From Vicinamibacteria bacterium (GTDB lineage: Bacteria; Acidobacteriota; Vicinamibacteria; Marinacidobacterales; Marinacidobacteraceae), in contig OZ241322.1 of assembly GCA_965199715.1 (NCBI GenBank), forward strand, positions 73,226-137,225: 64,000 bases of DNA. The letters are read 5' to 3'. The notes below the pieces were generated by a model that was not told the origin of the DNA, did not search any database, and worked only from the letters and a program-made list of their open reading frames with translations. The position numbers were made by a program, and so were the translations under genes. Position 1 is the stretch's first letter. The number at the start of each line of letters is the position of its first letter. This document shows, one piece after another, positions 8,971-33,190 of the stretch.

Positions 8971-10406
8971 AGCCTCCCGGAAACGATGAGACGATCGGCG
9001 GCGTGAACCTGGCACTCGTGAGTCACTCCACTCGGCGCCGCGTCCCGGCGGCGCTTCTCGCCGCGGTCTTCGTCCTCGGCGCGCTTCCGGCGGACGCGGA
9101 CGCGCCGTCCCGGCGCACCGTCTGGCGCGACATGACGAACAAGGGGAACTCCCTCGTGATCGGGCGGTTCGCGGGCAAGTTCGAGAGTTCCGACTTCCGT
9201 TCCCGGCGCATCGTGATGCGGCACCGGGACACCGGCAAGCGGGAGACGCTCCGGATCGACGACGGTCTCGGCCTGATCGCCGAGATCGTGAAGCCGGGCG
9301 TGTACGACGTGCTCGCGATCGAGGCGGTGTACCTGCCGCAGATCCGCCCCATGAACCCGCGCCGGATCCGCCCCATCCGCCAGCGGTTCTCGGTCTCGCC
9401 CAGGGAGCACGAGATCAGGGAGGCGCTGATCCTCGTCCCCGCCGACCGCCCGGTCTACATCGGCACGATCCGCGCCGGCGCCGAGCGGCGGGGGATGGTG
9501 TACGAGGGCCAGAAGCTGCGCGTGGTCGATGACTTCGACGTGGCCATGGACCGGCTCGCCACGGTGTATCCGCAGCTCGCGACCAGCCTCGAGCAGGAGG
9601 CGCTGGTTCCGCAGCGGCACTTCATGCTGCGTCCGACCCGCACCGACCCGCCGCTCGAGGCCGTCGTCGGCATGGAGGACCCGGTGACGCAGGCGCGGCG
9701 CTACATCGAGGACGGAAAGTACGAGCAGGCCATCGACTGGCTCTCCACGTTCATGCCGGTCTCCGACAACCAGCGCAGCGAGGTGCGGCTCCTGATCGGC
9801 GAGGCGCATCTGGGATCGCGCGACCTGCCGCTCGCCATCGAGGAGCTCGGCGAAGTGCTCCTGAGCGAGCCCGGCAATGTCCGCGCCTTGCGGCTGCTCG
9901 CCCGCGCCCACTCGCTGAACGGCGATCTGGAGGACACCGAGAACCTCTACCACGCGCTTCTCGAGATGCGGCCCCGCGACGCCGAGGCGCACCTCCAGAT
10001 CGGCTACCTGCAGGCGCTTCGCTCCGAGGAGGAGAGTTCGCTCGCCTCGTTCGAAGTCGCCTTCGAGAGCGAGTTCGACTACCTGATGCACGACCTCGCG
10101 CCGTTCCTGATCGCGGTGCGCGGCACCACCGAGCAGGGCGCGCTCTACGAGCCGGCCACGATGCTCGACACCGACGTCCCGTTCGCGGGCGGCTCCGGCT
10201 CCCGGCGCTCGTCGCGCAACGACGGCATCCTCGTGCTGATCGACCACCGGGGGCGCGTCAAGGCGGCGCACTTCGCGCCGGACAGCTCGAACCGCGCCCA
10301 CCTCACGATGTTGTCTTTGGTGCGCGGGCGCTACCGCCCGGCGCGCCTCAACGGGGTCTCGGTGCCGTCGATCCTCGCGAGCGGCCGCTTCCGCGGCGAG
10401 AACTAG
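8967..10406 (+). CDS. Secreted TPR-repeat protein (hypothetical)
   Basis: Protein-like composition. Signal-peptide-like 'RRRVPAALLAAVFVLGALPADA'. TPR-like segments 'YEQAIDWLS...', 'ALRLLARAHSLNGDLEDTENLYHALLEMRP'. Start is uncertain: TTG 8967 (TTGA overlap with the upstream stop), GTG 9003 or GTG 9018. Confidence 0.55.
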   Translation: MKPPGNDETIGGVNLALVSHSTRRRVPAALLAAVFVLGALPADADAPSRRTVWRDMTNKGNSLVIGRFAGKFESSDFRSRRIVMRHRDTGKRETLRIDDGLGLIAEIVKPGVYDVLAIEAVYLPQIRPMNPRRIRPIRQRFSVSPREHEIREALILVPADRPVYIGTIRAGAERRGMVYEGQKLRVVDDFDVAMDRLATVYPQLATSLEQEALVPQRHFMLRPTRTDPPLEAVVGMEDPVTQARRYIEDGKYEQAIDWLSTFMPVSDNQRSEVRLLIGEAHLGSRDLPLAIEELGEVLLSEPGNVRALRLLARAHSLNGDLEDTENLYHALLEMRPRDAEAHLQIGYLQALRSEEESSLASFEVAFESEFDYLMHDLAPFLIAVRGTTEQGALYEPATMLDTDVPFAGGSGSRRSSRNDGILVLIDHRGRVKAAHFAPDSSNRAHLTMLSLVRGRYRPARLNGVSVPSILASGRFRGEN

Positions 10407-11161
10407 GGCGCTTCCAGCAGCCGCTCCACCTCGGCCTCGAGCGCCGAGAACGGTTGGTCGGTGCTCGGCGCCGGGTGCAGTAGCCCTTGGCGGTCGATGA
10501 GGAAGTTGGCCGGGTAGCGGGCGGTCTCCATGAACACCGGCGGCACGGCGCCGCCCTCGAGCGCGCCGGGCACGAGCAGCGGGTACTCGACCGCCACCGA
10601 CTCGTCCCGGAACGTCCGCTGGATCGCCTCCTCCTCGGTCGAGATCCCGAACACCACGAGGCCCCGGTCCGCCTCCTCGGCGGCGAGCCGGTCCAGCTCG
10701 GGCATCTCGGCGCGACACGGCGGACACCACGTGGCCCAGATGTTGACAAGCACGACGGACCCCCGGTAGCCGGAAAGCCGGTGGACGCCGCCGTCCAGAT
10801 CGCGGGCGAGGAAGTCGGGCGCGGGCACGCCCGAGAGCGCGAGGTTGGCCGCCTGCCGCGCCCGGCGGACGCCGCCCCGGATGGGGACGAAGGCGAGCCC
10901 GAGCGTCAGCGTCGCGACGAGCGCGCCCGCGATCCCCGCGGCGCCGAGCGCGCCGGCGCGCCGCGCCCGGAACGCCGAAACCAGCGCGAGGACCGGCGGC
11001 GCCAGCATCGCGAGGGTGACCGCGGCGAGCCGGAACACCCAGTCGCCGTCGGGGTTCGCGCTCAGGCGCGTGAGCCCGACGTACGCGCCGAGGCCGAGGA
11101 CGGCGGAGAGCAGCGGGGCGGAAAGGCCGGCCCACAAGGGCGAGCGGGGCACAAGGCTCAT
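10403..11161 (-). CDS. Membrane-anchored TlpA/ResA-like thiol:disulfide oxidoreductase (thioredoxin fold, WCPPC)
   Basis: Three or four N-terminal TM helices, then 'VVLVNIWATWCPPCRAEMPELD' as the redoxin active site. ATG 11161 overlaps the upstream stop (ATGA). Confidence 0.8.
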   Translation of the reverse strand: MSLVPRSPLWAGLSAPLLSAVLGLGAYVGLTRLSANPDGDWVFRLAAVTLAMLAPPVLALVSAFRARRAGALGAAGIAGALVATLTLGLAFVPIRGGVRRARQAANLALSGVPAPDFLARDLDGGVHRLSGYRGSVVLVNIWATWCPPCRAEMPELDRLAAEEADRGLVVFGISTEEEAIQRTFRDESVAVEYPLLVPGALEGGAVPPVFMETARYPANFLIDRQGLLHPAPSTDQPFSALEAEVERLLEAP

Positions 11162-12141
11162 GGGACGTCTCCCTCGTAGCGGCGGCGGATGACGGGAATC
11201 AGGTACTCGGCGAACAGCGACTCGGCGTCGGGGTCGGGAACCCAGCGGAAGTCGTCCCGCGCCGCGCGGTCGTCCACCTCGGCCGGCCAGCTCTGGACGA
11301 TCCGGTCGCGTTGCACGTCGGGAGCGTAGGTATGGTCGAGGTCCGGGAAGTCCCGCCGCACGCGGGCGGCGACTTCCTCCGCCGAAAGGCTGGGGCCGCC
11401 GAGGTTGTATGCGGTGCGCGAGAGGCGGGACTTGTCCGCGTCGGCCAGCCGGAGCACGCCCTCGACCGCCGTCGGCATGGCGCAAAACGGAAGTCGCGCC
11501 TCGGGACCGACGAAGCACGCGAACGACTCGCCCCGCGCCGCGGCGTGGATCATCTCGGGCGCCCAGTCGCTCGTCCCTCCCGACGGCAGCGTCTCGGCGG
11601 ACAGGAGCCCGGGGAACCGCACCGCGCGGAAGTCCAGATTCGCGCACTCCCGCTCGAGGACCGTCCCGAGGCGCTCGACGTAGAGCTTTTGCGCTCCGTA
11701 GAGCGTCGCCGGGTTCAGGAACTGGTCCTCGCGCACCGGCCCGGGGTCGCGCCGCAGCGGCACTCCGTACACGGCGATCGAGCTCGGGAAGAGGAACGCC
11801 ACCGGGGTCTCGGCGGCGAGCGCCGCCGCTGCCCCGAGCGCCCGGACCGAACCCTCGACGTTGACCCGGTGCGCGAGTTCGGGGACCGACTCGGCGCGGG
11901 TCGAGAGCAGCGCGGCGAGGTGGAAGATCCGCTGCGGCCGATGTCCGAGGATGCGCTTCCAGACCTCCCGGTCGAGGATGTCGCCCTGGATGTGCCCGAG
12001 GCTTCTCGGGGCCGCTTCGCCGGGGAGCGGGCGGATGTCGGTCGTGAGCACCCGGCAGTCGGAACGCGCCGAAAGCCGGCGCACGAGCGCGGTTCCGATC
12101 TCCCCGGACGCGCCGGTGACCAGCGTGACCGGCGGGCTCAC
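11158..12141 (-). CDS. NAD-dependent epimerase/dehydratase family protein (short-chain dehydrogenase, L-threonine-3-dehydrogenase-like)
   Basis: 'VTLVTGASGEIGTALV' Rossmann motif, '...YGAQK' catalytic YxxxK. GTG at 12141 verified; it overlaps the upstream gene stop (GTGA). The R-rich 5' extension of the track ORF was rejected. Confidence 0.75.
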   Translation of the reverse strand: MSPPVTLVTGASGEIGTALVRRLSARSDCRVLTTDIRPLPGEAAPRSLGHIQGDILDREVWKRILGHRPQRIFHLAALLSTRAESVPELAHRVNVEGSVRALGAAAALAAETPVAFLFPSSIAVYGVPLRRDPGPVREDQFLNPATLYGAQKLYVERLGTVLERECANLDFRAVRFPGLLSAETLPSGGTSDWAPEMIHAAARGESFACFVGPEARLPFCAMPTAVEGVLRLADADKSRLSRTAYNLGGPSLSAEEVAARVRRDFPDLDHTYAPDVQRDRIVQSWPAEVDDRAARDDFRWVPDPDAESLFAEYLIPVIRRRYEGDVP

Positions 12142-12827
12142 GCCGGGCCCCCGAGAACGGCGGCGAGGAACCGCCCCACGTCGCGGCACTCGGGCGCCGA
12201 GACCTCGTGGGCGATCGGGTACGCGCGGAAGACTCCGTCCCACCCGGCGTCGCGAAACGCCCGGAACGCGGCCTCGCCGTAGCGGCACGGAATGAGTTCA
12301 TCCGACAGGCCGTGGCCGGCGAAAAGCCGCGCTCCCGGGAGCTTCGGACCGCGCACCAGCTCGGTGTGGGCGACGTGAGTCGAAAGCGCCAGCACGCCGC
12401 CGACCTCGACGGGATCCCCCGCCACGCCGTCGAGCCCGGCGGCGGCGAGCGCCACCGCGCCGCCCTGCGAGAACCCGGCGAGGACGATCCGGCGCGCCGG
12501 AACGCCCGCCTCGCGCTCCTCCCGGACGAGTTCCCGGATCCAGGTCACCGACTCGGCGAGCTGCTCCTCGTCCACGAGCCGCCCGCGGGCCTCCGGAGAC
12601 TCCGCGATGATCGCGCGCAGATCGAACCACGAGCGCATCGGGAAGCCGCCGTTCAACGTCACCGGGCGGACCGGCGCCTCCGGGAAGCGGAAGCGGACTC
12701 CGAGCGCGGGCGGGAGGCCGAGCATGGGGATCACCGGGACGAAGTCGTCGCCGTCGGCCCCGAGGCCGTGGAGCCAGATCACGGTGGCGCGGTGCTCTCC
12801 AGACGGCGGGAGTTCGACGATGCTCAC
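12138..12827 (-). CDS. Phospholipase/carboxylesterase family alpha/beta hydrolase
   Basis: 'TVIWLHGLGADGDDF', 'MRSWFD', 'GFSQGGAVAL' (nucleophile elbow), matching the Abhydrolase_2 pattern. GTG at 12827 overlaps the upstream stop (GTGA). Only the last 229 aa of the 899-aa track ORF are protein-like. Confidence 0.75.
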   Translation of the reverse strand: MSIVELPPSGEHRATVIWLHGLGADGDDFVPVIPMLGLPPALGVRFRFPEAPVRPVTLNGGFPMRSWFDLRAIIAESPEARGRLVDEEQLAESVTWIRELVREEREAGVPARRIVLAGFSQGGAVALAAAGLDGVAGDPVEVGGVLALSTHVAHTELVRGPKLPGARLFAGHGLSDELIPCRYGEAAFRAFRDAGWDGVFRAYPIAHEVSAPECRDVGRFLAAVLGGPA

Positions 12828-15742
12828 GTGAATTGCTCCCGCAGCGCGAAGTCGAGCGTCTCCAGGTACCGGTCGGCGTCGGCGTTCGAGAAGGTGAGCG
12901 GGGGCTTGAGCTTGATCACGTTGCGGTCGGGGCCGTCGGTGCTGTTGAGGATGCGGCAGTCGTGGAGGCGCCGCACGAGCCGCCCGGCCTCCCGGGTCGC
13001 CGGCGCCGGCGGATCGCCCGGGTGCGCGAGCTCGAAGCCGAGGAAGAGGCCCCGGCCGCGGACGTCGGCAAGGATAGGGCAGGAGCGGCCGATCTCGGCG
13101 ATCCCGGAAAGAAGCCGCGCCCCCACGGCCGCCGCGCGCTCGGCGAGCCCCTCGTCGCGGATGACGTCGAGGACGGCGAGGCCGGCGGCGCACGAGACCG
13201 GATTCCCGCCGAAGGTGTTGAAGTACTCCATCCCGTCCTCGAAGGAACGGGCGACCTCCGGGGTCGTCACGACGGCTCCGAGCGGGTGCCCGTTTCCGGC
13301 CGGCTTGCCCACGGTCACGATGTCGGGAACCGCCGCGTCGTCGCCGGTCCGGTCGGAAAAGGCCCAGAACGCCGGGCCGACGCGCCCGAAGCCGGTCTGC
13401 ACCTCGTCGGCGACGATGACGCCGCCGGCCTCGCGCACCGCCCGGTAGAGCGCGTCCAGATATCCCGGCGGCGGGACGATCTGCCCTCCGCAGCTCAGGA
13501 TGGCCTCGTGAACGAGGGTGGCCGGCCCGGCGGCGGCGACGCGGCGGGCCGCGTCCTCCATGAGCCGCTGCGTCCAGTCGGGCCGATTTCGGCGGAAGCG
13601 CCCGCGGAACCCGTCGGGAGCCGGCAGCCGATGGAGGCGGGGGTGCGGCCGGCCGCCGCCCGGACCGTCCAGCTTGTACGGGCTGATCTGGATGAGCGAG
13701 GTCAGGTTCCCGTGGTAGCCGCCGTCGAAGACGATCGCGTCGTCGCGGCCGAGCCGAGCGCGGGCCAGCCGCAGCGCGAGGTCGTTGGCCTCGCTGCCGG
13801 AGTTCGTGAAGAACACGACCGACAGCGGCTCGGGAAGCGTTTCGGCGAGCGCCTCCGCGTATTCGGTCAACTGCCGGTAGAGATACCGGGTGTTCGTGTT
13901 CAGGAGCCGCGCCTGCCTCGCGATGGCCTCGGCGACTCTCGGATGCGCGTGCCCGACGTGGCAGACGTTGTTCACCATGTCGAGGTAGTCGCGCCCAAGG
14001 TTGTCGTACAGCCGGGTGCGCCGCCCGCGCGCCACCGAGACCGGCGGGTCGCCGCTGAGGCTGAGCGCCGCGCTGATCCGTCGCCTCCGCGCCTTCAGCA
14101 GGTGCTCGGGCTCGGCGAGGGCCTCGTGCGAGACCGCGACCCGGTCCGGGTCGAGGCCGAGGAACGCCGCCGGGTTCGGGCTCATCGCCTCGAGGACCGG
14201 AAGGTCGCGGGGCGCGGCCACGCCCGGCGGGTCGTCGCCGAAGCCGAGATCGGCGGTCAGCAACTGGAAATGGAGGTGCGGCGGCCAGCCGCCGTTCTCG
14301 TCTTCGGTCCCGAGCCTCGCGATTCGATCGCCGCGCCGGACCGGGTCGCCGGGCTTCCAGCGGGCGAGGCATTCGCGGGCGAGATGGCCGTACAGCGCGC
14401 CGAAGCCGCCCGGATGCCGGATCGCGAGGCAGGGACCGAACCCGAGCGGGACGGCGTCCTCGCGAATCCAGTCGATCGCGCCGTCCAGCGGGGCGCGGAC
14501 CTCGGTTCCGGCCGGCGCGAAGACGTCGATCCCGAGGTGAATCGTGCGCGGCTCGGCGACCGGCGATCCGCCCCGGAAGCCGGGCGCGGCGTAGAGCAGG
14601 CGCGGCTCGCGATAGCGGCCGATGGAGACTCCGGGCGGGATGGCGTCGGCGAGCTCCTCGGGGCCGGCCAAGGCTTCGGGGCCGAGATCCAGCGCCGGCG
14701 CGTCGTCCGGAATCTCGATCGGCCGAACGGCCGCCCCTCCGGGATCCGCCGATCGAACCCGGAACCCGGCCGCGACCCGCGCCCGAGCCGCGAGCAGCGC
14801 GCCCGGAGTGCGGTCCAGTTCCGACAGGAACCGCCACATCCCGTCCTCGCTGGTCACGAGATACGCCTCGCCGGCGTTGGCTCGCCCGGCGCTGACCGCG
14901 GCGCTCACGAGCGCCCGCGCCGCGAGCGCGGTCGGGAAGAGTTCGGCTTCGGCCGCGAGCGCAGGGGCGAACGCCCGGAGGACGGCGAGCGCCGCCTCGA
15001 GCGGCTCGGCGGCGGTGAGCGAGAGATAGAGCGCGGCGTTCGCGGCCTCAAGCAGCGGCGGACCCCGCGACGCGTCCCCGAAGTCCAGCACGGCGAGCGC
15101 GCCCGGGTTCTCGGGTTCGCCCTCGAGCAGCAGGTTGTCGTCGTTCAGATCGTTGTGGAGCCAGTTCTCCGGAAGGCCGAGGAGTTCCGTCAGTCTCGGC
15201 AGCGTCCGCTCCCGGATCCGGTCGTAGAGCTCCGGATCGCGCAGTCCGCGTCCGGCCGCCCGGATGACGCCCTCGTACCGATCCGGCCGCCAGGGAATGT
15301 CCGCCGGCGGGAGCTCGTCGCCCGCGACCGAGGCCAGCGCCGACTGGAGCCGGGCCGCGGTTTCGCCGGCCCGGGCGAGGAGCGCCGGCGGGCGGCGCCG
15401 GAACGACGAGAGCGCCCGGCCGGGGAGGCGCGGGAAAAGCCGCAGCCAGTGGCGCCGTCCGTCGAAGACGCGCGACGCCCGTGCGCGCCCGTCGGGAAGC
15501 GGGATCGGAACCGCGACCCGGACCTGCGCCGCCGCCGCCCGGATCAGGCGCTCCTCGAGGTCGAGCTGCGCGGCGGAAGCGCCGCTCTCGCTGATCTTGA
15601 GGACGCGGGCGCCCACCGCGAAGTTGAGATCGCGCTCGCCGGGCAGGGGAAGCGCCTGCGCGGAGACGCCCCACAGCGCGGCGGCGAGCTCTTCGGCCTC
15701 CGCCGGGGTGACGCGGGGCCGGCGCGGCAGCGGATCGTTCAC
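12824..15742 (-). CDS. Three-domain fusion protein: APH/hydroxylysine-kinase-like phosphotransferase + M23 metallopeptidase domain + class-III (AGXT2L-like) PLP-dependent aminotransferase/phospho-lyase
   Basis: N-terminal 'ERDLNFAVGARVLKIS...LHNDLNDDNLLL...VLDFGDA' (kinase HxDxxxxN and DFG motifs). Middle 'HLGIDVFAPAGTEV...GGWPPHLHFQL' (M23 HxxxD and HxH zinc motifs). C-terminal 'GGYHGNL...ADEVQTGFGRVG...VTVGKPAGNGHPLGAV' (class-III aminotransferase with PLP lysine). GTG at 15742 overlaps the ALDH stop (GTGA). The first ~400 codons of the 1368-aa track ORF are R/P-rich artefact. Confidence 0.75.
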   Translation of the reverse strand: MNDPLPRRPRVTPAEAEELAAALWGVSAQALPLPGERDLNFAVGARVLKISESGASAAQLDLEERLIRAAAAQVRVAVPIPLPDGRARASRVFDGRRHWLRLFPRLPGRALSSFRRRPPALLARAGETAARLQSALASVAGDELPPADIPWRPDRYEGVIRAAGRGLRDPELYDRIRERTLPRLTELLGLPENWLHNDLNDDNLLLEGEPENPGALAVLDFGDASRGPPLLEAANAALYLSLTAAEPLEAALAVLRAFAPALAAEAELFPTALAARALVSAAVSAGRANAGEAYLVTSEDGMWRFLSELDRTPGALLAARARVAAGFRVRSADPGGAAVRPIEIPDDAPALDLGPEALAGPEELADAIPPGVSIGRYREPRLLYAAPGFRGGSPVAEPRTIHLGIDVFAPAGTEVRAPLDGAIDWIREDAVPLGFGPCLAIRHPGGFGALYGHLARECLARWKPGDPVRRGDRIARLGTEDENGGWPPHLHFQLLTADLGFGDDPPGVAAPRDLPVLEAMSPNPAAFLGLDPDRVAVSHEALAEPEHLLKARRRRISAALSLSGDPPVSVARGRRTRLYDNLGRDYLDMVNNVCHVGHAHPRVAEAIARQARLLNTNTRYLYRQLTEYAEALAETLPEPLSVVFFTNSGSEANDLALRLARARLGRDDAIVFDGGYHGNLTSLIQISPYKLDGPGGGRPHPRLHRLPAPDGFRGRFRRNRPDWTQRLMEDAARRVAAAGPATLVHEAILSCGGQIVPPPGYLDALYRAVREAGGVIVADEVQTGFGRVGPAFWAFSDRTGDDAAVPDIVTVGKPAGNGHPLGAVVTTPEVARSFEDGMEYFNTFGGNPVSCAAGLAVLDVIRDEGLAERAAAVGARLLSGIAEIGRSCPILADVRGRGLFLGFELAHPGDPPAPATREAGRLVRRLHDCRILNSTDGPDRNVIKLKPPLTFSNADADRYLETLDFALREQFT

Positions 15743-17097
15743 CGCAGCAGCATCCGGATCAGCCCCAGCTTGCCGGCGTAGGGCGGATAGCGGATCGGGA
15801 GGTCCAGCCGCGAGCCGGAGAGCACTGCGCGGGGCCGGGACAGGCGGTCGAAGCCGTAGCGGCCGTGGTAGGCGCCGACCCCGCTGCGGCCGGTCCCGCC
15901 GAAGGGCAGCCAGGGGCTCGCGCAGTGGAGCACTGTGTCCTGCGTCACGAGCGCGCCGCCGGGAATCCGCCGCACCGCCACCCCGAGCGAACTCCGCCGC
16001 GACCCGAAGAAGTAGAGCGCGAGCGGCTCCGGATTCGCCGCCACTCGGTCGAGCGCCTCGTCCTCGCTCCTCCACGGGACGAGCGGCAGGATCGGGCCGA
16101 AGATCTCCTCGGTCGCGGCGGCGTGTCCCTCGGGCCACGGCCCGGTGACGGTCGGCGCGAGATAGCGCCGCGCCGGGTCCGCCTCGCCGCCGCGAAGTAC
16201 CGGAAGCCCGTCGAGCAGGCCGAGCAGCCGATCGAGGTGGCTCTCGTTCACGATGCGGGCGTAGTCCGGGCTCTTCGCCGGGTTCTCGCCGTAAAAGCGC
16301 GTCAGCTCGCGGCCCACGAGCGCGGCGAATTCGTCGAGGCGGCGCTCGGGGACGAGCGCGTAGTCGGGCGCCACGCAGGTCTGGCCGGCGTTCAGGAACT
16401 TCCCCCACGCGATCCGGCGGGCGGCGAGCGGCAGATCGGCGGAGTCGTCCACCATCGCCGGGCACTTGCCGCCGAGTTCGAGGGTGACCGGCGCGAGCGT
16501 GTGCGCCGCCGCCTCGGCGACGGCCATTCCGGTGCGCCGGTTTCCGGTGAAGAACACGTGGTCGAACCCGGCCCGCACCAGCGCCGCGCCGGTCTCGGGG
16601 CCGCCCCGCACGACGCTCGCGAGCCCCTCGGGCAGCGCGTCGGGGAGGATGCGGGCGAGGAGGTCGGCGGTCGCCGGCGCGAGTTCCGACGGCTTCAGGA
16701 CGACGGCGTTCCCCGCCGCGATCGCGGCGACGACGGGCGCGAGCGAGAGCTGGACCGGGTAGTTCCACGGCGCGATCACGAGCACCGCCCCGAGCGGGAC
16801 CGGCTCGACCCGGCTGCGCGCCGGAAGCAGCGCGAGCGGCGTGGGCCGGCTCCGCGGACGCATCCACTCTCCGAGATGGCTTCGCGCGTGGCGGATTTCG
16901 GCGCGCACGAGGCCGATCTCGGTGGCCCACGCCTCGAACGGGCCCTTGCCGAGGTCCCTCTCGAGCGCTTTCTCCAGCGCGCCCCGATGCTCCCGCAGCA
17001 TCCGGTCGAGCGAACCGAGCGCGTCCCGCCGGAACCGCCGGGAGAGGGTGGCTCCGCTCCTCGCGAATCGCCTCGCCCGCTCCCGAATCTCGTCCAA
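15739..17097 (-). CDS. Aldehyde dehydrogenase (ALDH3/fatty-aldehyde-dehydrogenase-like)
   Basis: 'VLVIAPWNYPVQL', 'ELGGKCPAMV', 'FLNAGQTCVAPDY', 'EEIFGPILPL'. The N-terminus aligns with ALDH3 proteins from 'MDEIRERARRFARSG', so I chose TTG at 17097, which lies about 10 nt downstream of a TATACT -10 box. The longer track ORF would overlap msrA. Confidence 0.75.
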   Translation of the reverse strand: MDEIRERARRFARSGATLSRRFRRDALGSLDRMLREHRGALEKALERDLGKGPFEAWATEIGLVRAEIRHARSHLGEWMRPRSRPTPLALLPARSRVEPVPLGAVLVIAPWNYPVQLSLAPVVAAIAAGNAVVLKPSELAPATADLLARILPDALPEGLASVVRGGPETGAALVRAGFDHVFFTGNRRTGMAVAEAAAHTLAPVTLELGGKCPAMVDDSADLPLAARRIAWGKFLNAGQTCVAPDYALVPERRLDEFAALVGRELTRFYGENPAKSPDYARIVNESHLDRLLGLLDGLPVLRGGEADPARRYLAPTVTGPWPEGHAAATEEIFGPILPLVPWRSEDEALDRVAANPEPLALYFFGSRRSSLGVAVRRIPGGALVTQDTVLHCASPWLPFGGTGRSGVGAYHGRYGFDRLSRPRAVLSGSRLDLPIRYPPYAGKLGLIRMLLR

Positions 17098-17131
17098 GGG
17101 AGGGCGAGTATAGAGTCTAGAATCGGCGGCG

Positions 17132-17779
17132 ATGGCCGCCCGTTCCCAAGCTCTCCCGTACCCCTCCGCAACGCTGCCGGACCGCCCGGTCGCCATCCCG
17201 CCGCCCGCCGCGCACCGCGTCCTCGGGAATCCGATGGCTCCGCCGTGGCCGGCGGGAATCGATGAGAGCTTCTTCGGCATGGGCTGCTTCTGGGGCGCCG
17301 AGCGGCTGTTCTGGAAGCTCCCGGGCGTCTGGAGCACCGCGGTCGGATACGCCGGCGGAACCACCGCGAACCCGTCGTACGAGGACGTCTGCTCGGGGAG
17401 GACCGGCCACGCCGAGGTGGTGCGGGTCGCGTTCGACCCGGCGCGGATCGACTACGACGGGCTGCTGTGCGCGTTTTGGAACAACCACGACCCCACCCAG
17501 GGAATGCGCCAGGGCGGCGACGTCGGCACGCAGTACCGCTCGGCGCTCTATACGGTGGGCGACCGGCAGCGGGACGCCGCGCTCGCCTCGCGCGACGCCT
17601 TCGAGGCGCGCCTCCGGGACGCCGGGCTCGGCGCGATCACGACCGAGATCCGGCCCTCGCCGGCGTTCCATTTCGCCGAGGAGTACCACCAGCAGTACCT
17701 CGACAAGAACCCGTGGGGGTACTGCGGCCTCGCCGGTACCGGCGTCTCCTGCCCGACGGGCGTCCGCGCCGCGAGCTGA
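17132..17779 (+). CDS. msrA: Peptide-methionine (S)-S-oxide reductase MsrA
   Basis: '[29 protein letters not shown]...GHAEVVRV...[19 protein letters not shown]...EEYHQQYL'. The N-terminus aligns with E. coli MsrA. TAGAAT -10 box 8 nt upstream. Confidence 0.9.
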
Positions 17780-18074
17780 TGGCGGGGACCGGGCGGCGGA
17801 GCGCGCCGCCGGGCTGCGCCTCGGAGCGATCCGGCGCCGGATCTTCCTCTGCGCGGACGCGACGAAGCCCAGGTGCTGCGCCCCCGAGCGCTCGCTCGAG
17901 TCCTGGGCCTTCCTGAAGCGGCGGCTCGCCGAACTGGGCCTCGCGCGCGGCCCCGAGGGAGGCCCGGTGGCGCGGACGAAGGCGAACTGCCTGCGCGAGT
18001 GCGCCGACGGGCCGGTCAGCCCAGCAGGCGCCGCAGCAGCGTCTCCGCGCGCTCCGCCGGAATCCCCCTCCTGA
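17779..18074 (+). pseudogene. Probable remnant of a thioredoxin-like [2Fe-2S] ferredoxin gene (frameshifted at 5' end, runs into metH 3' end)
   Basis: Frame 0 encodes 'RRRIFLCADATKPRCCAPERSLESWAFLKRRLAELGL...VARTKANCLRECADGPV', matching the small Trx-like ferredoxin family. That frame has no start codon: the ATG at 17779 is in a different frame. The conserved 'VVVYP..WY' continuation is missing. Confidence 0.3.
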
Positions 18075-21000
18075 GCGCGTAGTCGCGCAACTGGTCCCGG
18101 CCGATCCGGCCGACGCTGAAGTACCGCGCTTCGGGGCTTCCGAAGTACATCCCGGCCACCGACGCGGCCGGATGGATCGCGAAGTTCTCGGTGAGCGCGA
18201 CCCCGATCCGCGCCGGGGCGTCCAGAAGCTCGAACACGTCGGCGAGGATTCCGAGGTCGGGCGTCGCGGGATAGCCGGGCGCGGGCCGGATCCCCTGGTA
18301 CGCCTCCCGCAGCAGATCCTCGGGTGCCAGGTTCTCGTCGCGCCCGTAGCCGAGCGCGCGCCGCGCCTCCTGGTGGGTCTTCTCGGCGAGCGCCTCGGCC
18401 AGCCGGTCGCCGAGCGAACGCAGGAGCAGCGCGTCGTAGTCGTCTCCCTCCGCCGCCCGCACGAGATCGTCCAGCCCGGCGACGGTCACGGCGAACAGCC
18501 CGACCGTGTCCGCTTCGGAATCGAGGAAGTCGGCGGCGGCGAGGCGCGGGCCGGGCCGATCCTCCTGCTGGCGGAGCGTCGGGATGCGGCGAAGCGCCCG
18601 CTGCGGGTCCTCGGGATCGCGGACCTCGAGGTCGTCCCCGACCGAGACCGCCGGGAACAGCCCGAAGACCGCCTCGCCCGAGAGACCGTCCAGCCCCTCG
18701 AGCCGCGCCCGGGCGGCGTCGTGAAGCTCGCGGGCGGCGGGACCGGCGTAGGGGTGGTCGAGGAGCGCCGGGAATGTTCCCCGGAACTGCCAGGCGTGGA
18801 AGAACGGCGTCCAGTCGATGTACGGGACGAGATCGACGACGGGAACGCTCCGCCGGCGGAACCCGAAGAACTCGGGGCGCACCGACTCCGCGCGCGCGAA
18901 CCGGGGAGCGCGGGCGCGGGCCTCCTCGAGGCCCAGCAGCTTCGGCCGGGAGCGCGGGTCGCGCCGGCGGATCGCTTCCTGCTCGTCCCGGTTCCGTGCG
19001 ACGAACGCGTCCCGGTCCGCGCCGAGGAGCGCCGCCGCCACCCCCGACGCCCGGGACGCGTCCGCCACGTGCACCACCGGCGCGGCGCGCTTGGGGGCGA
19101 TCCGCAGCGCCGTGTGGCGGACCGAGGTCGTCGCCCCGCCGATCAGCAGCGGCGTCGCGACCCCCCGGCGTTCCATTTCTTCGGCGAAGCGCTCCATCTC
19201 GTCGAGCGACGGCGTGATGAGGCCGGAAAGCCCGATCAGCGAGGCCTCCGAGTCCAGCGCGGCGTCGAGGATCCGGTCCGCCGGGACCATGACCCCGAGG
19301 TCGTGGATCCGGTAGCCGTTGCAGGCCAGCACGATGCCCACGATGCTCTTGCCGATGTCGTGGACATCGCCGCGCACCGTCGCGAGCACGATGGAGCCGC
19401 GCCGCGCGCCGGCGTCGGTCTCCATGAAGGGCTCGAGCGCGGCGACCGCCCGCTTCATCACCCGCGCGCTCTTGACCACCTGAGGCAGGAACATCCGCCC
19501 GGCCCCGAACCGGTCGCCGACGACGCGCATCCCGTCCATGAGCGGCCCCTCGATCACCGCAAGCGCCTCGCCATGCTCGCCGAGCGCTTCCACGGCGTCC
19601 CGCTCCATGTGGTCGAGAACGCCTTCGAGGACCGCCCGGGCGAGCCGCTCGCCCACCGGCAGGTCGTCCCGCCGCTCGGCCTTGCGGCTGCGAAGCCGCG
19701 CCCGCGCTCCGGCGGCCGCCTCGACGAGCCGCTCCGTCGCGTCCGGACGGCGGGCGAGGAGCACGTCCTCCACCCGCTCGCGCAGCGCCTCGGGAATCGA
19801 GTCGATCGGTGGCAGCCTCCCGGCGTTCACGATCGCCATGTCGAGGCCGGCGGCGATCGCGTGGTGCAAGAAGACCGAGTTCATGGCTTGGCGCACCGCC
19901 TCGTTCCCCCGAAACGCGAACGAGACGTTCGAGACTCCGCCGGAGAGCAGCGACCCCGGGCACGCCTCCCTGATGAGCGGCAGCGACGCGAGGAACTCCA
20001 GCGCGTAGCGGTCGTGCTCGGGAATTCCCGTGGCCACCGCGAGCACGTTGGGGTCGAGGATCACGTCCTCGGGCGGAAAACCGACGCGCTCGACCAGAAG
20101 GCGCGCCGCCCGCGCCGCGATCGCCGTCTTCCGCTCCCGGTCCACCGCCTGGCCCCGCTCGTCGAAGGCCATCACCACTGTCGCGGCCCCGAACCGGCGC
20201 ACCCGCTCCGCCGCCCGCAGGAAGGCGTCCTCGCCGTCCTTCAGCGAGAGCGAGTTCACGACGCACTTGCCGGGCGCCGCCCGAAGCCCGCGCTCCAGCA
20301 CGCCCTGCCGCGAGCTGTCGATCATGATCGGGAGGCGGGCGACCTCCGGCTCCATCGCCACCAGCCGGAGGAACCGCTCCATCGCCGCCTCCGCGTCCAG
20401 AAGCGCGTCGTCCATGTTTACGTCGATGAGGTTCGCGCCGCTGCTCACCTGGTCCCGCGCGACCGCGAGCGCCTCTTCCAGCCGCTCCTCGCGGACGAGG
20501 CGGGCGAACTTGCGGGAGCCGGTGACGTTCGTGCGCTCGCCGATCACGAGGAAGCTGCCCTCGGGGCGCACGAGCGGCTCGGTCCCGGCGAGGCGGAGGC
20601 GGCGCGCGGGGCGGGGGACGCCGCGCGGCGGCACGTCCCGGACCGCCGCCCCGATCGCCTCGACGTGCTCGGGGCCGGTTCCGCAGCACCCCCCGACCGC
20701 ATTCACGAGGCCGTCCCCGGCGAGGCTGCGTATCTCCCGGGCCATCGCCTCGGGGGTTTCGTCGTACTCGCCGAGCTCGTTCGGAAGCCCGGCGTTCGGC
20801 GCGAGCGTGATGGGAACCGCCGCCTCCCGCGCCAGATCCCGAACGAACGGGCGCATCGCCCCGGGGCCGAGCGAGCAGTTGATTCCGGCCGCCGTGACCG
20901 CGGCGTGGCCGACCGAGATCCAGAACGCCTCCGCGGTGTGCCCGGTCAGGTTCCGTCCGCTCCGATCGACCGCGGTGAACGAGACCACCAGGCCGGCGCG

Positions 21001-21600
21001 GCCCGGCGCCCGGTCGATGGCTTCGGTGGCGGCGTCCAGCGCCGCCTTCGCGTTCAGCGTGTCGAAGCAGGTCTCCACCAGAAGGACGTCGGCCCCGCCC
21101 TCGAGCAGCCCGGACGCCTGCTCTGCGTAGGAGTCGCGCAGCTCGTCGTAGCCCAGCGCGCGATGCGCCGGGTCGGCCACGTCGGGGGAGATCCCGAGCG
21201 TGCGGTTCGTGGGCCCCATGGAGCCGAGCACGAAGACCTCCGGCCCGCCCGCCCGCCGCGCCAGCGCCGCGCCCGCCCGGTTGATCTCGAACGCGAGGCT
21301 CGCCGCGCCGTAGTCGGCGAGCGAGATCGAGGTCGCGGTGAACGTGTTCGTGGTCAGCGCCTCGGCTCCCGCCGCGAGGTAGCGCCGATGCACCCCGAGC
21401 ACCAGCTCGGGCCGGGTCAGGCAGAGCGCGTCGCCGAGGCCGGCGAGCGGCTGCGGGTGGTCGCGAAGCCGCTCGCCCCGATACCCCGCCTCGTCGAGCC
21501 GCTCCCGCTGGATCATGGTCCCGATCGCGCCGTCGATGAGCAGGATGCGCTGCGCCAGGGCGTCCAGCAGCGCCCCGTGGCGGTCGTCGCGAGCGGTCAT
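18016..21600 (-). CDS. metH: Cobalamin-dependent methionine synthase MetH
   Basis: 1194 aa with the Hcy-binding domain ('LIDGAIGTMIQ', 'GGCCGTGPEH'), pterin-binding, B12-binding ('VRGDVHDIGKSIV') and AdoMet-activation domains in canonical order. Confidence 0.92.
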   Translation of the reverse strand: MTARDDRHGALLDALAQRILLIDGAIGTMIQRERLDEAGYRGERLRDHPQPLAGLGDALCLTRPELVLGVHRRYLAAGAEALTTNTFTATSISLADYGAASLAFEINRAGAALARRAGGPEVFVLGSMGPTNRTLGISPDVADPAHRALGYDELRDSYAEQASGLLEGGADVLLVETCFDTLNAKAALDAATEAIDRAPGRAGLVVSFTAVDRSGRNLTGHTAEAFWISVGHAAVTAAGINCSLGPGAMRPFVRDLAREAAVPITLAPNAGLPNELGEYDETPEAMAREIRSLAGDGLVNAVGGCCGTGPEHVEAIGAAVRDVPPRGVPRPARRLRLAGTEPLVRPEGSFLVIGERTNVTGSRKFARLVREERLEEALAVARDQVSSGANLIDVNMDDALLDAEAAMERFLRLVAMEPEVARLPIMIDSSRQGVLERGLRAAPGKCVVNSLSLKDGEDAFLRAAERVRRFGAATVVMAFDERGQAVDRERKTAIAARAARLLVERVGFPPEDVILDPNVLAVATGIPEHDRYALEFLASLPLIREACPGSLLSGGVSNVSFAFRGNEAVRQAMNSVFLHHAIAAGLDMAIVNAGRLPPIDSIPEALRERVEDVLLARRPDATERLVEAAAGARARLRSRKAERRDDLPVGERLARAVLEGVLDHMERDAVEALGEHGEALAVIEGPLMDGMRVVGDRFGAGRMFLPQVVKSARVMKRAVAALEPFMETDAGARRGSIVLATVRGDVHDIGKSIVGIVLACNGYRIHDLGVMVPADRILDAALDSEASLIGLSGLITPSLDEMERFAEEMERRGVATPLLIGGATTSVRHTALRIAPKRAAPVVHVADASRASGVAAALLGADRDAFVARNRDEQEAIRRRDPRSRPKLLGLEEARARAPRFARAESVRPEFFGFRRRSVPVVDLVPYIDWTPFFHAWQFRGTFPALLDHPYAGPAARELHDAARARLEGLDGLSGEAVFGLFPAVSVGDDLEVRDPEDPQRALRRIPTLRQQEDRPGPRLAAADFLDSEADTVGLFAVTVAGLDDLVRAAEGDDYDALLLRSLGDRLAEALAEKTHQEARRALGYGRDENLAPEDLLREAYQGIRPAPGYPATPDLGILADVFELLDAPARIGVALTENFAIHPAASVAGMYFGSPEARYFSVGRIGRDQLRDYALRRGIPAERAETLLRRLLG

Positions 21601-21639
21601 TGGCGCCCGGAAGTGTAGGGGTAGGATTGCCGGGCGCCG

Positions 21640-22871
21640 TGAGCCGCATCCCCCTCCACCTTCAGGTCGTCATCGGCGCGGTCGCCGGAATCCTCGTCGG
21701 CGCGCTCGTGGGCGAACCGGCGTCCCTGCTCCAGCCGGTTGCGGATCTCTTCGTCCAGTTGCTGCGGATGATCATCGCCCCGATGATCTTCCTCACGCTG
21801 GCGGTGGCCATCATCGGCCACGGGGCGCGGTCGGTTTCGGGCGTCGGCGTCCGGGCGGTCGCCTACAACCTCGTCACGCTCTCGATCGCGCTCGCCGTCG
21901 GGATCGGCGTCGCCGCCGCGCTCGGCCCGGGCGAGGGTCTGGACGCCGCGACCCGCGCCTCGCTGGAGGGGAGCGGAACGGCTCCGGCGGTGACGGGCGA
22001 GCCCCGGTCGGCCCTCGACGTCCTCATCGGCGTCGTCCCGACGAACGTCTTCAGCGCGTTCGTGGACGGCGACGTCCTCCAGATCCTCTTCCTCGCGATC
22101 CTCTTCGGCGTGGCGGTGCGGGCGGTGGGGATCGACCGGTTGGACGGCCTCGTGCGCGTCGTGCGGGGCATGAACCAGCTCGTGTACAAGGTGGTCCACT
22201 GGGTGGTGCTGCTCGCCCCGTTCGGCGTGTTCGCGATCCTCGCCGCGGTGGTGGGCCGCAGCGGGCTCGGCATCCTCGGCGCGCTCGCGTGGTACTGCGC
22301 CGTGGTCTTCCTCGCGATCCTCGCGCACGTCACGTTCGTCCACGTCGGCGCGGTTCGCGTTCTCGCCCGGCAGCCGCTCGGCAACTTCCTTCGGGCGCTG
22401 CGGGAGCCGCTTCCGATCGCCTTCGCGGCGGTCTCGACCGCGGCGGCGCTTCCGGCGTCCATGGTGGCCGTGCCGCGCGAGACCGGGATCACCGAGCGCG
22501 CCGCTGGGTTCGTGCTGCCGCTCGGGGCCGCCGCCGGACGCGATTCCAGCGGGATCTACCAAGTCGTCTCGGTGCTTTGCATCGCCCAGCTCGTGGGCCG
22601 CTCGCTCGACGGCCCCGAACTCTTCCTGCTGTGGGTGACCGCGATCCTCTCCTCGCTCGCGGTCGCGGCGGTGCCGGGCGCGAGCTTCGTGAACCTGACC
22701 ATCCTGCTGGACGCCGTCGGCCTTCCGGTCACGCTCGCCGCGCTCGTGTTCGCGGTGGAGCGGCCGCTCGACCACCTGCGCACCAGCGGGAATCTCATCG
22801 GCCAGCTCGCCAACGCGACGTTCACCGGAGCGACGAGCGGCGAGATCGGACCGCCGGGACGAAGGCGCTGA
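21640..22871 (+). CDS. Dicarboxylate/amino-acid:cation symporter (DAACS family, GltP/DctA-like)
   Basis: Multi-TM protein. 'AFAAVSTAAALPASMVAVPRETGI...FVLPLGAAAGRDSSGIYQVVSVLCIAQLVG' matches DAACS TM7/HP2 motifs. GTG 21640 chosen; the TTG at 21600 would coincide with the metH start codon. Confidence 0.75.
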
Positions 22872-29556: not shown

Positions 29557-30507
29557 ATGCGGGGCATGAGGCTCGGCGCCGCCGCGATCCTGCTGGCGCT
29601 TCCGGCCGCGGCTCAGGAGATCCCGCGCTTCGAGGCGGGGGTCGATCTCGTCTCGGTGCCGGTCGCGGTCACGGATCGCGACGGGGACTTCGTCACCGGA
29701 CTGACGGCGGCGGATTTCCGCGTCTTCGAGGATGGAGTCGAGCAGGAGATCCTGATCTTCGGCGCCGGGCTCGACGAGTCGTGGGTCGAGCTGCCCCCGG
29801 AAGCGAAGGAGGACACGCCCGGCCGCAACGTCATCGGCCTGCTCCTCGACTCGTCGGGCAGCATGGAGAAGGACATGAGCCTGCTCCACGAGGCGGCGAT
29901 CAAGTTCCTGACCAACATTCCGCCCGCAGAGCATCTCTTCGTCATCAGCTTCGACGAGAACATCCGGCTTTCCGAGTATTCGTCGGACGACCAGCGGACC
30001 ATCGCGAACCGCATCTACGACATCGAGGCCGACGGTTGGACCGCGCTCTACGACTCGGTGGCGACGTTCCTCGACCGCGTCTGGGACTACGAGGGACGCA
30101 AGACGCTCGCGGTGTTCAGCGACGGAGCCGACTCGCGCTCGGCGCTCAGCTTCGGCGAGGCCATGGACCTCGTCAAGCTCGGCGACACCACCATCCACAC
30201 GATCCAGTTCGGCGACCGGGCGCGCGCCCGGGACCTCTTTCACAACTCGCGCTTCCTGCGGGCCATCGCCGAGGAGACCGGCGGCTCGCACGCGGTGGCG
30301 TCCTCGCTCGACCAGATCGACGAGCTCTACGACCGCATCCTCGACGAGCTCCACAGCCAGTACGCCATCGGCTACGTGTCCAGCAACCTGAAGCGCGAGG
30401 GCCGCTACCGGGACATCGAGGTGCGCGTCGTCGCCGACGGGCTGGACGACCCGAAGGTGCGGGCGCGCCGGGGGTACTACGGCCCGATGGACCCGCCGAG
30501 CCCCTGA
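29557..30507 (+). CDS. Secreted von Willebrand factor A (VWA) domain protein
   Basis: Signal peptide; 'IGLLLDSSGSMEKDM' MIDAS DxSxS motif; '...TALYDSVATFL...LAVFSDGADS'. Confidence 0.8.
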   Translation: MRGMRLGAAAILLALPAAAQEIPRFEAGVDLVSVPVAVTDRDGDFVTGLTAADFRVFEDGVEQEILIFGAGLDESWVELPPEAKEDTPGRNVIGLLLDSSGSMEKDMSLLHEAAIKFLTNIPPAEHLFVISFDENIRLSEYSSDDQRTIANRIYDIEADGWTALYDSVATFLDRVWDYEGRKTLAVFSDGADSRSALSFGEAMDLVKLGDTTIHTIQFGDRARARDLFHNSRFLRAIAEETGGSHAVASSLDQIDELYDRILDELHSQYAIGYVSSNLKREGRYRDIEVRVVADGLDDPKVRARRGYYGPMDPPSP

Positions 30508-31107
30508 CCGGGCGCCGCGAGCCGGCGAAGCAACTCCCGCACTTCGCCCAGGCGTTCGTGGTCGAGGTTCCAGAGCGCCTTCTTCGCCGCCACCCCGACG
30601 GACGCCTGGGGAGCGGAGGTCGTCGCGAGGAAGGCTCGCGACCGCGCCTTCGCCGTGGGCGCGACGAGCCGTCCACTCGGGCGACGCAGTCGAAGAACTC
30701 GTCGATGCACGGCGTGATGGGACGTTTTCCTCAAGGCTCTGCAATCGAGGCTCGAGCGCCTTCAGCGAGTGAAGAAGCAAACCCTCGCGCTTCCGCCTGC
30801 GCAGCACGGAGAGCCGATTCGCGTCTTCCGTAGCATTTCGATTGGCCGCCGACAGGAACGCGCCCCGAAACTGCGTTGCCTCGGGACAGTCCATCGACAG
30901 TTTGCCGTCCTTCCCGAATCGCCGGGTCGGCTCCCGTCTGGAATTCTGCTCATGGGACAGCGAAAGGGTTGGCAACCGGACGGTCTCGGCTTGCGTCGCG
31001 ATCGCGGCGGGTGCGCGGTTGCACCCATTGCCATTGGCTTCTGATTGGTCCCCACGGACCGGGACAGCGAGTGATCCGTCCTCGCGGTCAACGCGAATGG
31101 TCAGCGC

Positions 31108-31536
31108 CTAGGAACCGTGATCTCGATGCTGGCCGCCAAGCTTGATCGACCGTTTCAGGTCGAGCTGTGAGAAGAGGGGCTTCCAGATCGTGTTCTGGAT
31201 CGCATCGGGCGATCCCGCGAAATCCACGACGCCGCGGAATCCGGTAACCCGCATGATCAGCCCGGCGTGTCCAGCGCCGGCCAACAGGAAGAGCGCTTCG
31301 AGCAAGGAGGTCTTCCCGACGCTGTTTCCCCCGGCGAACAGATTGATTGGGCCGAGACGGGAGATGTGGAGATCTTCCAGCCCCGGAAATTGCGGATTCG
31401 CCGTTGCTCGAACATGGGTTGCTCCACTCTGACGGGGCCCTGAACGGACGGAACCGCCCGCCCCGGTCCACGTCGCGTCGAACTGTACGTCGCCCCGACC
31501 GATACGCCGCCCAGGTAGCCTACGCTTCCCCGCCAT
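31108..31536 (-). pseudogene. Truncated AAA/P-loop ATPase N-terminal fragment (OLD/AAA_15/AAA_21-type, defense-system-like)
   Basis: 'LEDLHISRLGPINLFAGGNSVGKTSLLEALFLL' is the N-terminal Walker-A region typical of OLD-family/abortive-infection ATPases. The ORF stops after about 90 homologous residues with no Walker B or ATPase core. Lower-GC context. Confidence 0.5.
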
Positions 31537-32557
31537 GCAGAAGCTCGCCGCCGCGCTCCTCCTCGGCGCCCTCGCCGCGCCCGCCGCCGGCCAGCCGGAA
31601 TTCCACGACGTCCACTTCCATGCGACGGACTACATCCAGCGCCAGATCGATTTACGGGACTTCCTCGGGATGATGGGCGATCGGGTGGGCCGTTCCACCG
31701 TCATGCCCATCCCGCTCCAGCAGAAGTGGGATCCGCACGTCTCGGGGGACCGCGCCCCCGACTACTACCTGCGCACCGACGCGCCGCTGTACTACTACTC
31801 GTTCGTGGACGCCATGGTCGCCGAGGCGGTGCTCGCGCTCCCCGAAGCGGACCGCGCCCGGCTGGACCCGATGATCACCGGCTTCAACCCCACCGACATG
31901 TACGCGGCGGACCACATCGAGCGCGCGCTTCGCATGTACCCCGGAGTGTTCAGCGGAATCGGCGAGTTCTCCATCCACAAGGAAGTCGTGACTCCCAAGA
32001 CGCTCGGCCACGCGGCGAGCCTCCGCAACCCGGCGCTCGACCGGATCCTCGAGTTCGCCGCCGAGTCCGGCCTGCTCGCGCTCGTCCACAACGACGCGGA
32101 CGTCATCCTGCCGCACGCGGACGCCCATCCGGCGCACTTCGACGCCTTCCTCGAGCTCGTCGCCGACCACCCGGACGCGACCATTGTTTGGGCGCACTCC
32201 GGGCTCGGGCGCTTCGTCGAGCCGACGGACGGATACGTGGACCTGCTGGAGGACGTGCTGGAGGACGACCGCTACGCCCATCTGCACCTCGATCTCTCGT
32301 GGGACGTCGTCGCGGAGCAGATCGCCGACGACCCGGCGTGGGCCGATCTCGTCGAGCGCTTTCCGACGCGGTTCCTGCTGGGTTCCGACGCCGTGACTCC
32401 CCGGGACGAGGCCGCCTACCTGCGGAACCTGGCCGTCTGGGAGCCGCTCCTCGACCGGCTCGGCGCGGACGCCGGCGAGGCGCTGCGCCTGCGGAACTAC
32501 GAGCGCCTCTTCGATGAGGCCCGCCGGCGGGTGCGGGCGTTCGAGGCGTCCCGATAA
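31535..32557 (+). CDS. Secreted amidohydrolase-family (metal-dependent TIM-barrel hydrolase) protein
   Basis: Signal peptide 'MQKLAAALLLGALAAPAAG'. 'FHDVHFHATDY' (HxH metal motif), 'ALVHNDADV', 'IVWAHSGLG', 'LLGSDAV' are typical amidohydrolase metal ligands. Confidence 0.75.
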   Translation: MQKLAAALLLGALAAPAAGQPEFHDVHFHATDYIQRQIDLRDFLGMMGDRVGRSTVMPIPLQQKWDPHVSGDRAPDYYLRTDAPLYYYSFVDAMVAEAVLALPEADRARLDPMITGFNPTDMYAADHIERALRMYPGVFSGIGEFSIHKEVVTPKTLGHAASLRNPALDRILEFAAESGLLALVHNDADVILPHADAHPAHFDAFLELVADHPDATIVWAHSGLGRFVEPTDGYVDLLEDVLEDDRYAHLHLDLSWDVVAEQIADDPAWADLVERFPTRFLLGSDAVTPRDEAAYLRNLAVWEPLLDRLGADAGEALRLRNYERLFDEARRRVRAFEASR

Positions 32558-33036
32558 GCGGGCCCGGAGTCGGTCAGGGAGCCGTGACGCTGACATTGTC
32601 GCTCACGATGTAGGGCCCATTCCTCGCGGCCGTCGAATGGACGCAGGCGTAGTAGTCGTGGTCGATGAAGTTCGGGGGGGCTCCGGCCGTCCGTCTGCCT
32701 GAATCCGGTGGCGTTCCAGGTCGCGCTGAGACCGCCCTTGCCGGCCGCGCCCCAGTTGTCCTCGGTCTTCTTCCCGGTCGAATGGAGCTCCGCGCGGATC
32801 TCCTCGGCTTTCGTCTTGGTCAACGCCGCCGACGCGCTGATCGTAAAGTGGACGTCATGTTCCGTAGAGCTCGACCCAAGCTGCCCGGAGGAATTCCGAA
32901 GCGCGAGGCGGAGCGGCTCGAGAAAGGCTGTCCTGCCGGCGTTGTCGGGGCCGTCCAGGACGGTCATCTCGCCGAGGTCGCGCGCGACGCGTCGGATGGG
33001 CCGAAAGTTCTCGATCTCAATGCGGACGATGCGCAC
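32497..33036 (-). pseudogene. Truncated OLD-family/AAA_21-like ATPase N-terminal fragment
   Basis: 'MRIVRIEIENFRPIRRVARDLGEMTVLDGPDNAGRTAFLEPLRLAL' is the canonical N-terminus of OLD/ATP-dependent-endonuclease ATPases with a degenerate P-loop (GPDNAGRT). It decays into low-complexity sequence and overlaps the amidohydrolase 3' end by 60 nt. Confidence 0.45.
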
Positions 33037-33133
33037 GCGACGGACAACTCCCTTCGCCGCCGCGGTCGTGATTTCCTGCGTGGAGCGCAGCGAAAAGGGG
33101 GACGGGACATCGCTTCGATCTCGGCGGAAGCGA

Positions 33134-33171
33134 AAAAGGGAGCAGGCCCGCTCCTTGTGGAGCGGGCCTGC
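33134..33171 (-). terminator. Rho-independent terminator of the FN3 lipoprotein gene
   Basis: Perfect 13-bp inverted repeat GCAGGCCCGCTCC-TTGT-GGAGCGGGCCTGC, followed on the minus strand by CCCTTTTTCG. About 20 nt downstream of the stop at 33191. Coordinates approximate to 1-2 nt. Confidence 0.7.
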
Positions 33172-33190
33172 TGGGGAGTCGGGAATCAGG

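Follow-up and report, generated by a model that had tools for sequence, protein, structure and literature searches.

Results

A 64,000-nt stretch of DNA from Vicinamibacteria bacterium (Acidobacteriota; GenBank assembly GCA_965199715.1, contig OZ241322.1, positions 73,226 to 137,225), which we refer to as the window, carries a gene that joins an APH-type kinase domain, an M23 peptidase module and a class-III aminotransferase-fold domain in one complete coding sequence (12824..15742; GTG start at 15742, TGA stop at 12826-12824). This gene, its residues and the operon described below all lie on the minus strand, and their coordinates are those of the window. Translation gives an uninterrupted protein of 972 aa from 972 codons, with all three Pfam domains in frame, which bears out a preliminary description, made from the letters alone, of a single polypeptide with these three parts; the five motifs listed there (HNDLNDDN, DFG, HLGID, HLH and VTVGKP) were likewise all located by translation. 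The G+C content at third codon positions (GC3) is 0.86-0.96 in a single phase along the whole open reading frame (ORF), and the sole phase change, at ~15.7 kb, coincides with the beginning of the upstream gene. A mechanically defined ORF reaches further upstream, to 16930, and the extra stretch belongs to an aldehyde dehydrogenase gene read in another frame. Moreover, a database protein of 972 aa (P0001) is 100% identical to the fusion, and AlphaFold2 modeled the full chain with a predicted local distance difference test (pLDDT) score of 92.4 and a predicted template modeling (pTM) score of 0.91. The model has a fixed three-domain arrangement, in which the M23 module is packed rigidly against its neighbors and the linkers are well ordered.

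The N-terminal domain (aa 1-330; 14753..15742) is an APH-type small-molecule kinase, scoring 78.1 bits against the Pfam APH profile (PF01636; E 1.1e-21, cut-off 23.2). It contains the HxDxxxxN catalytic loop as HNDLNDDN (15134-15157), with H196, D198 and N203, the DFG-like aspartate D220 in a DFG(D) motif (DFG at 15077-15085) and the ATP-binding lysine K49 (15596-15598); of these, K49, D198, N203 and D220, which serve in phosphotransfer, do not vary across the family. In a profile search, the nearest solved relative of this domain was PDB 6ef6 (E 1e-12), followed by the type-II homoserine kinase 2ppq, while a single-sequence search of the PDB returned only marginal choline-kinase matches. Weak matches to capreomycin and aminoglycoside phosphotransferases were also found. 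We take 6ef6 to be the (S)-1-amino-2-propanol kinase of the Mycobacterium smegmatis RMM microcompartment pathway (Mallette & Kimber 2018).

The C-terminal domain (aa 551-972; 12827..14092) has the class-III aminotransferase fold and resembles pyridoxal 5'-phosphate (PLP)-dependent phospho-lyases. Its Pfam Aminotran_3 (PF00202) score is 225 bits (E 1.4e-66, cut-off 30.5), and both the cofactor-binding aspartate D779 (13406-13408) and the PLP lysine K813 within VTVGKP (13304-13306) are invariant in 121 of 121 aligned sequences. Sequence comparison with solved enzymes placed human ETNPPL first (6tor; 403 bits, 48% identity over 412 residues) and the Arthrobacter phospholyase A1RDF1 second (5g4i; 269 bits), whereas racemases, decarboxylases and transaminases of the same fold scored 174 bits or less. 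The best fold match is likewise a solved phospho-lyase. By this nearest-neighbor test, the domain is predicted to belong with the phospho-lyase clade (ETNPPL/PHYKPL/A1RDF1) rather than with the transaminases.

Between these two domains lies the M23 module with its conserved flanking segments (aa 345-545; 14108..14710, Pfam core 14258-14542). The Pfam Peptidase_M23 profile recognizes it at 56.5 bits (E 3.3e-15, cut-off 28.7), and it has the M23/LytM fold. When aligned with active M23 enzymes, the zinc ligands H402 and D406 (in HLGID, 14525-14539) and H491 (in HLH, 14270-14278) are present, together with the catalytic histidines H453 (14384-14386) and H489; the roles of the zinc ligands and of the non-ligand catalytic histidines are those defined in a review of M23 enzymes (PMC9662197). 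A domain scan, which the preliminary description had named as the check on the middle region, thus confirms both its M23 identity and its intact-looking zinc and catalytic site. Two further residues, Y384 (14591-14593) and R399 (14546-14548), may correspond to the Tyr or Arg that stabilizes the oxyanion in LytM and EnpA. These two and the five zinc and catalytic residues are invariant in 101 of 101 intact family members, and all seven are found in 75 of 78 aligned fusion ORFs, the query included. The five alone are kept in 148 of 149 aligned sequences, made up of the query and 148 subfamily representatives, of which 147 have them. Intact members show stronger conservation in the M23 core than in the kinase domain. 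The fusion appears to depart from the extracytoplasmic location and peptidoglycan substrate typical of characterized M23 enzymes: along its length we found no export signal or membrane segment, and the 19-residue Kyte-Doolittle average peaks at 1.39 for the full protein and at 0.76 within its first 60 residues.

We also identified a genuine stand-alone M23 protein of the same subfamily (L088), which is cytoplasmic, 239 aa long and intact at the active site. Its gene lies directly after genes for an S9 dipeptidyl-peptidase-like protein and an Amidohydro_3 protein and before a sodium:solute symporter gene (L088 2379-8393), and the opposite strand encodes an FAD enzyme with weak likeness to L-pipecolate oxidase. 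Three other loci had appeared to show the M23 module as an independent partner in split genes, with the layouts APH + M23 + AT3 (L092), APH-M23 + AT3 (L089) and M23-AT3 (L090). We rejected all three as such proof: direct reading of the DNA and tblastn show that homology runs seamlessly across frames beyond the called gene boundaries, and these loci are therefore frameshifted copies of the fused gene (L089 193-3233, L090 853-3931, L092 4956-7958). Gene callers cut such copies in public metagenome assemblies into APH, M23 and Aminotran_3 'genes', which makes them a trap for Rosetta-stone inference and for counts of architectures.

Although the preliminary description regarded an intact M23 domain between kinase and lyase as unusual, this is the dominant architecture in every sample that we studied. 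A search of 5.8 billion proteins gave 120 listed cluster representatives with 38-100% identity to the fusion, among which 118 have the three-domain layout and two lack the M23 module. In a scan limited to a single genome for each species, at least 595 relatives were detected; the top 80 loci, which are those we examined, match the fusion over nearly its full length and cover more than 10 phyla, including Acidobacteriota, Gemmatimonadota, Bacteroidota, Chloroflexota, Planctomycetota, Alpha-, Gamma- and Deltaproteobacteria, Streptomyces and Asgard archaea. Acidobacteriota also supply the named relatives closest to the fusion, and cultured carriers of the family include Ensifer adhaerens and Ruegeria sp. 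With the M23 module as sole query, 86 representatives of 50%-identity clusters were recovered at E <= 1e-30 and 1015 at E <= 1e-10. The same architecture is covered by two full-length NCBIfam models: residues 8-970 of the fusion align to positions 14-971 of the 972 in PRK06149 with a score of 537.7 bits (curated cut-off 973), and PRK06148 scores 856.6 bits (curated cut-off 1128). Judged by these scores, the fusion is a divergent relative of the PRK06148/PRK06149 proteins rather than an equivalog. It is an additional member of a widespread, catalogued and functionally uncharacterized bacterial family found in hundreds of genomes. Full-length three-domain homologues with 36-37% identity are also present in metagenome-assembled genomes of Asgard archaea (Thorarchaeota and Promethearchaeota; L016, L017, L031, L075), which implies either an old origin or cross-domain transfer.

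A neighbor-joining tree built on the kinase and lyase columns places the fusion in a small clade with intact M23 modules, sister to a second clade in which the M23 active-site residues have been lost jointly in 17 of 17 members (P0005-P0021). In these proteins H402 is changed to S, Q, P or E, D406 to E and Y384 to E or G, and R399, H453 and H491 are often lost too, whereas the fold residues G375, R381, G404, F408, H443, Y451, L454 and Q493 are retained. At matched lyase divergence, identity in the M23 core is 59% for intact pairs and 46% for degenerate pairs. In a sub-lineage of the second clade, two proteins of 805 aa (P0022, P0023) show a clean deletion of ~210 residues that joins the kinase directly to the lyase, and both remaining domains stay intact. 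The degenerate and deleted forms hold the same operon position as the fusion, and this lineage offers, within one conserved operon, a comparative set of intact (the fusion), active-site-dead (P0005-P0021) and deleted (P0022, P0023) modules.

The fusion is the second of five genes (10403-17196) chained by 4-nt start/stop overlaps, three of them GTGA and one ATGA. The first gene encodes an aldehyde dehydrogenase (15739..17196; Pfam Aldedh E 2.3e-77) whose start is uncertain, either ATG at 17196 or TTG at 17097, and whose best NCBIfam match is the model for the benzaldehyde dehydrogenase MdlD, at 313 bits and under its cut-off; its TGA stop overlaps the GTG start of the fusion at 15742 (GTGA). 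Downstream, the GTG start of an Abhydrolase_2 gene of the phospholipase/carboxylesterase family (12138..12827; PF02230, E 2.8e-31) overlaps the TGA stop of the fusion, and this gene is in turn overlapped by 4 nt by a gene of the NAD-dependent epimerase/dehydratase family, a short-chain dehydrogenase/reductase (SDR; 11158..12141, Pfam Epimerase E 8.4e-26) with weak likeness to D-erythronate dehydrogenase in NCBIfam. The run ends with a TlpA/ResA-like thiol-disulfide oxidoreductase gene, joined by ATGA (10403..11161; Pfam AhpC-TSA/Redoxin, NCBIfam TlpA/ResA-like).

Related contigs have the same five-gene order, flanked by metH/msrA and TPR/HEAT/S41 genes, and the order is partly kept in L001 and L024. 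An aldehyde dehydrogenase gene neighbors the fusion in L081-L087, L001 and L024. Its coupling to the fusion recurs in eight related loci, and the junction in relatives is comparable to ours: gene calls there end the dehydrogenase gene and start the fusion gene at a single coordinate. Most organisms carry the fusion gene as a stand-alone unit. In one related locus, an IS4-family transposase lies between the SDR and redoxin genes of the otherwise conserved operon (L084 12035-13267), which suggests a lack of functional ties between the redoxin and the other genes of the operon.

Genes for an SDF symporter, the B12-dependent methionine synthase MetH and MsrA adjoin the operon (window 17132-22871), syntenic in L081, L082, L084 and L086; msrA and the aldehyde dehydrogenase gene are divergent with a very short gap, 26 nt between gene calls in L081. 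Elsewhere, positions 30001-34000 have a GC content of ~0.665 against ~0.73 in the rest of the window and may represent acquired or otherwise atypical DNA. No tRNA, rRNA or other Rfam family reached its gathering threshold in the 64-kb window.

Discussion

On balance, our data favor the view that this fusion is a cytoplasmic multi-enzyme protein with a core formed by an amino-alcohol kinase and a PLP-dependent phospho-lyase, to which the M23 module would contribute as a likely catalytic accessory. In the reaction sequence that we infer, the kinase would phosphorylate the hydroxyl of a vicinal amino alcohol, for which ethanolamine, 1-amino-2-propanol and the 5-hydroxylysine side chain are candidates, the lyase would then eliminate phosphate and ammonia to release an aldehyde, and the translationally coupled upstream aldehyde dehydrogenase would oxidize this product to an acid. 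The M23 module would probably cleave an amide or peptide bond, freeing or pre-processing the amine-bearing substrate; the preliminary description had put forward, as a hypothesis, a substrate that is peptide-bound or derived from the cell wall. The preliminary description had already proposed that a kinase and a lyase act consecutively. The domains fit this logic, and the coupling to an aldehyde dehydrogenase, which suits an aldehyde-forming lyase, adds support for such a pathway.

Several observations weigh against this interpretation. To our knowledge, there is no enzymology on any member of the family. The fusion falls below the curated cut-offs of both PRK06148 (a subfamily model) and PRK06149 (an equivalog model). 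The link to aldehyde dehydrogenase is confined to one lineage, and clustering of all ORFs across 80 diverse loci revealed no gene family shared by more than six of them. Our literature search found no mention of M23 together with a phospho-lyase, nor any relevant mention of PRK06148 or PRK06149, and the M23 roles described so far all relate to peptidoglycan located beyond the cytoplasm (PMC9662197). Finally, the joint loss of the active site in the sister clade and the clean deletion in P0022 and P0023 indicate that M23 catalysis is dispensable there for the kinase-lyase core. Because these orthologues occupy the same operon position and have lost either the active site or the whole module, M23 hydrolysis is not obligatory for kinase-lyase function. 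In this sense, the module is best described as a putative accessory of ancestral origin that is not essential to the core, and its catalysis as an apparently ancestral trait that is strongly constrained in most lineages but not needed by the kinase and lyase.

The conservation of the active site nevertheless argues that the M23 module is catalytic, and in the fusion itself, whose site is complete, the module is most likely competent. A more specific version of our interpretation, which we put forward tentatively, is that the module works as a cytoplasmic metabolic zinc hydrolase, cleaving an amide- or peptide-linked precursor, and that the amine so released would be passed on to the kinase and phospho-lyase inside the same rigid chain. 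Examples of such precursors would be small peptides that contain Gly, a D-amino acid or hydroxylysine, and aminoacyl amino alcohols. If this is correct, it would represent the first M23 function beyond cell-wall or secreted proteolysis, and the decayed and deleted modules of the sister clade would serve as natural loss-of-function controls.

The alternative that best withstands the evidence, although we regard it as unlikely, is that the module is purely architectural, that is, a rigid spacer or oligomerization platform that places the kinase beside a dimeric lyase and uses its zinc site for fold stability instead of hydrolysis. The pTM of 0.91 and the ordered linkers do indicate a rigid assembly, the degenerate clade keeps the fold residues together with 46-53% core identity, as if the fold alone were worth keeping, and the kinase and lyase evidently remain functional where M23 catalysis has been lost. 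However, a structural zinc site would require neither H453 and H489 nor Y384 and R399, yet these residues are invariant in 101/101 intact members and retained in 75/78 aligned ORFs, and they are lost jointly once the zinc ligands go. Moreover, a module that can be deleted outright is not structurally indispensable, and a stand-alone homologue with an intact site lies in a hydrolase cluster (L088).

A second alternative is that the C-terminal domain catalyzes genuine transamination or another class-III reaction and that the kinase phosphorylates some other compound, for instance an antibiotic or homoserine, so that no kinase-then-lyase pathway exists. Public annotations do read '4-aminobutyrate aminotransferase-like' or 'aminotransferase class III-fold enzyme', the APH family includes antibiotic kinases, and there are the weak matches to capreomycin and aminoglycoside phosphotransferases. 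This explanation seems to us improbable, given that the two solved phospho-lyases lead the sequence comparison of the lyase domain by a wide margin and also account for its best fold match, that the kinase profile lies nearest to 6ef6 and homoserine kinase II rather than to resistance kinases, and that coupling to an aldehyde dehydrogenase suits an aldehyde-forming lyase. The vertebrate kinase/lyase pair also offers a gene-fusion precedent: two papers (PMC5714238, PMC12138971) point to Veiga-da-Cunha 2012, the study that identified hydroxylysine kinase and the ammoniophospholyases, as a discovery of function through comparative genomics and gene fusion. As for an ORF created by a sequencing or assembly frameshift that merged two or three genes, which the preliminary description had named as a possible refutation, it can be dismissed in view of the single GC3 phase, the identical 972-aa record, more than 100 independent full-length homologues across many phyla and the confident single-chain model, the artefact seen in public assemblies being the reverse one, fused genes that are frameshifted and called as split (L089, L090, L092).

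Returning to the fusion as a kinase and phospho-lyase with an M23 accessory, we find parallels and differences with several known systems. In comparison with peptidoglycan M23 enzymes such as LytM, lysostaphin, NMB0315 and StM23, the fusion has no signal peptide or anchor and holds its M23 module between ATP- and PLP-dependent cytoplasmic domains. The module also differs from LytM-type enzymes in its family-specific invariants (IGRYxExR, Y384, R399, NGGWPPHLHFQ and DFPGV), with no evident peptidoglycan context.

The two outer domains find parallels in vertebrates, where the kinase HYKK (AGPHD1) and the lyases ETNPPL (AGXT2L1) and PHYKPL (AGXT2L2) likewise pair an APH-family kinase with a class-III-fold PLP lyase that acts on phosphorylated amino alcohols. 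Human ETNPPL and the lyase domain of the fusion share 47-48% identity. Unlike the fusion, the vertebrate enzymes are separate proteins without an M23 module. A1RDF1 of Arthrobacter aurescens (5g4i), which consists of a single domain, resembles the lyase domain less closely than human ETNPPL does.

The presumed kinase of the M. smegmatis 1-amino-2-propanol pathway (6ef6) is the best solved relative of the kinase domain, with low sequence similarity. That pathway reportedly also includes a class-III-type phospho-lyase. It differs from the fusion in that its genes are separate, lie in a microcompartment locus and come without an M23 module. Reviews confirm the 1-amino-2-propanol substrate of the microcompartment pathway and the presence of an aldehyde dehydrogenase.

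The closest counterparts are the PRK06148/PRK06149 proteins (~970-1015 aa), which resemble the fusion in their three domains, in the order of these and in their nearly equal length; most of them are encoded by stand-alone genes, whereas the fusion described here sits in a five-gene overlapping operon led by an aldehyde dehydrogenase. If the M23 module proves to be catalytic, this would both widen the known biology of M23 enzymes and reveal which substrate is the physiological one for a widespread bacterial counterpart to the human ETNPPL/PHYKPL-HYKK pathway. Set beside these relatives the fusion itself is ordinary, and its interest lies in the presence, across more than 10 phyla, of a zinc peptidase fold of the peptidoglycan type, its active site strictly conserved, inside a cytoplasmic enzyme of probable amino-alcohol catabolism.

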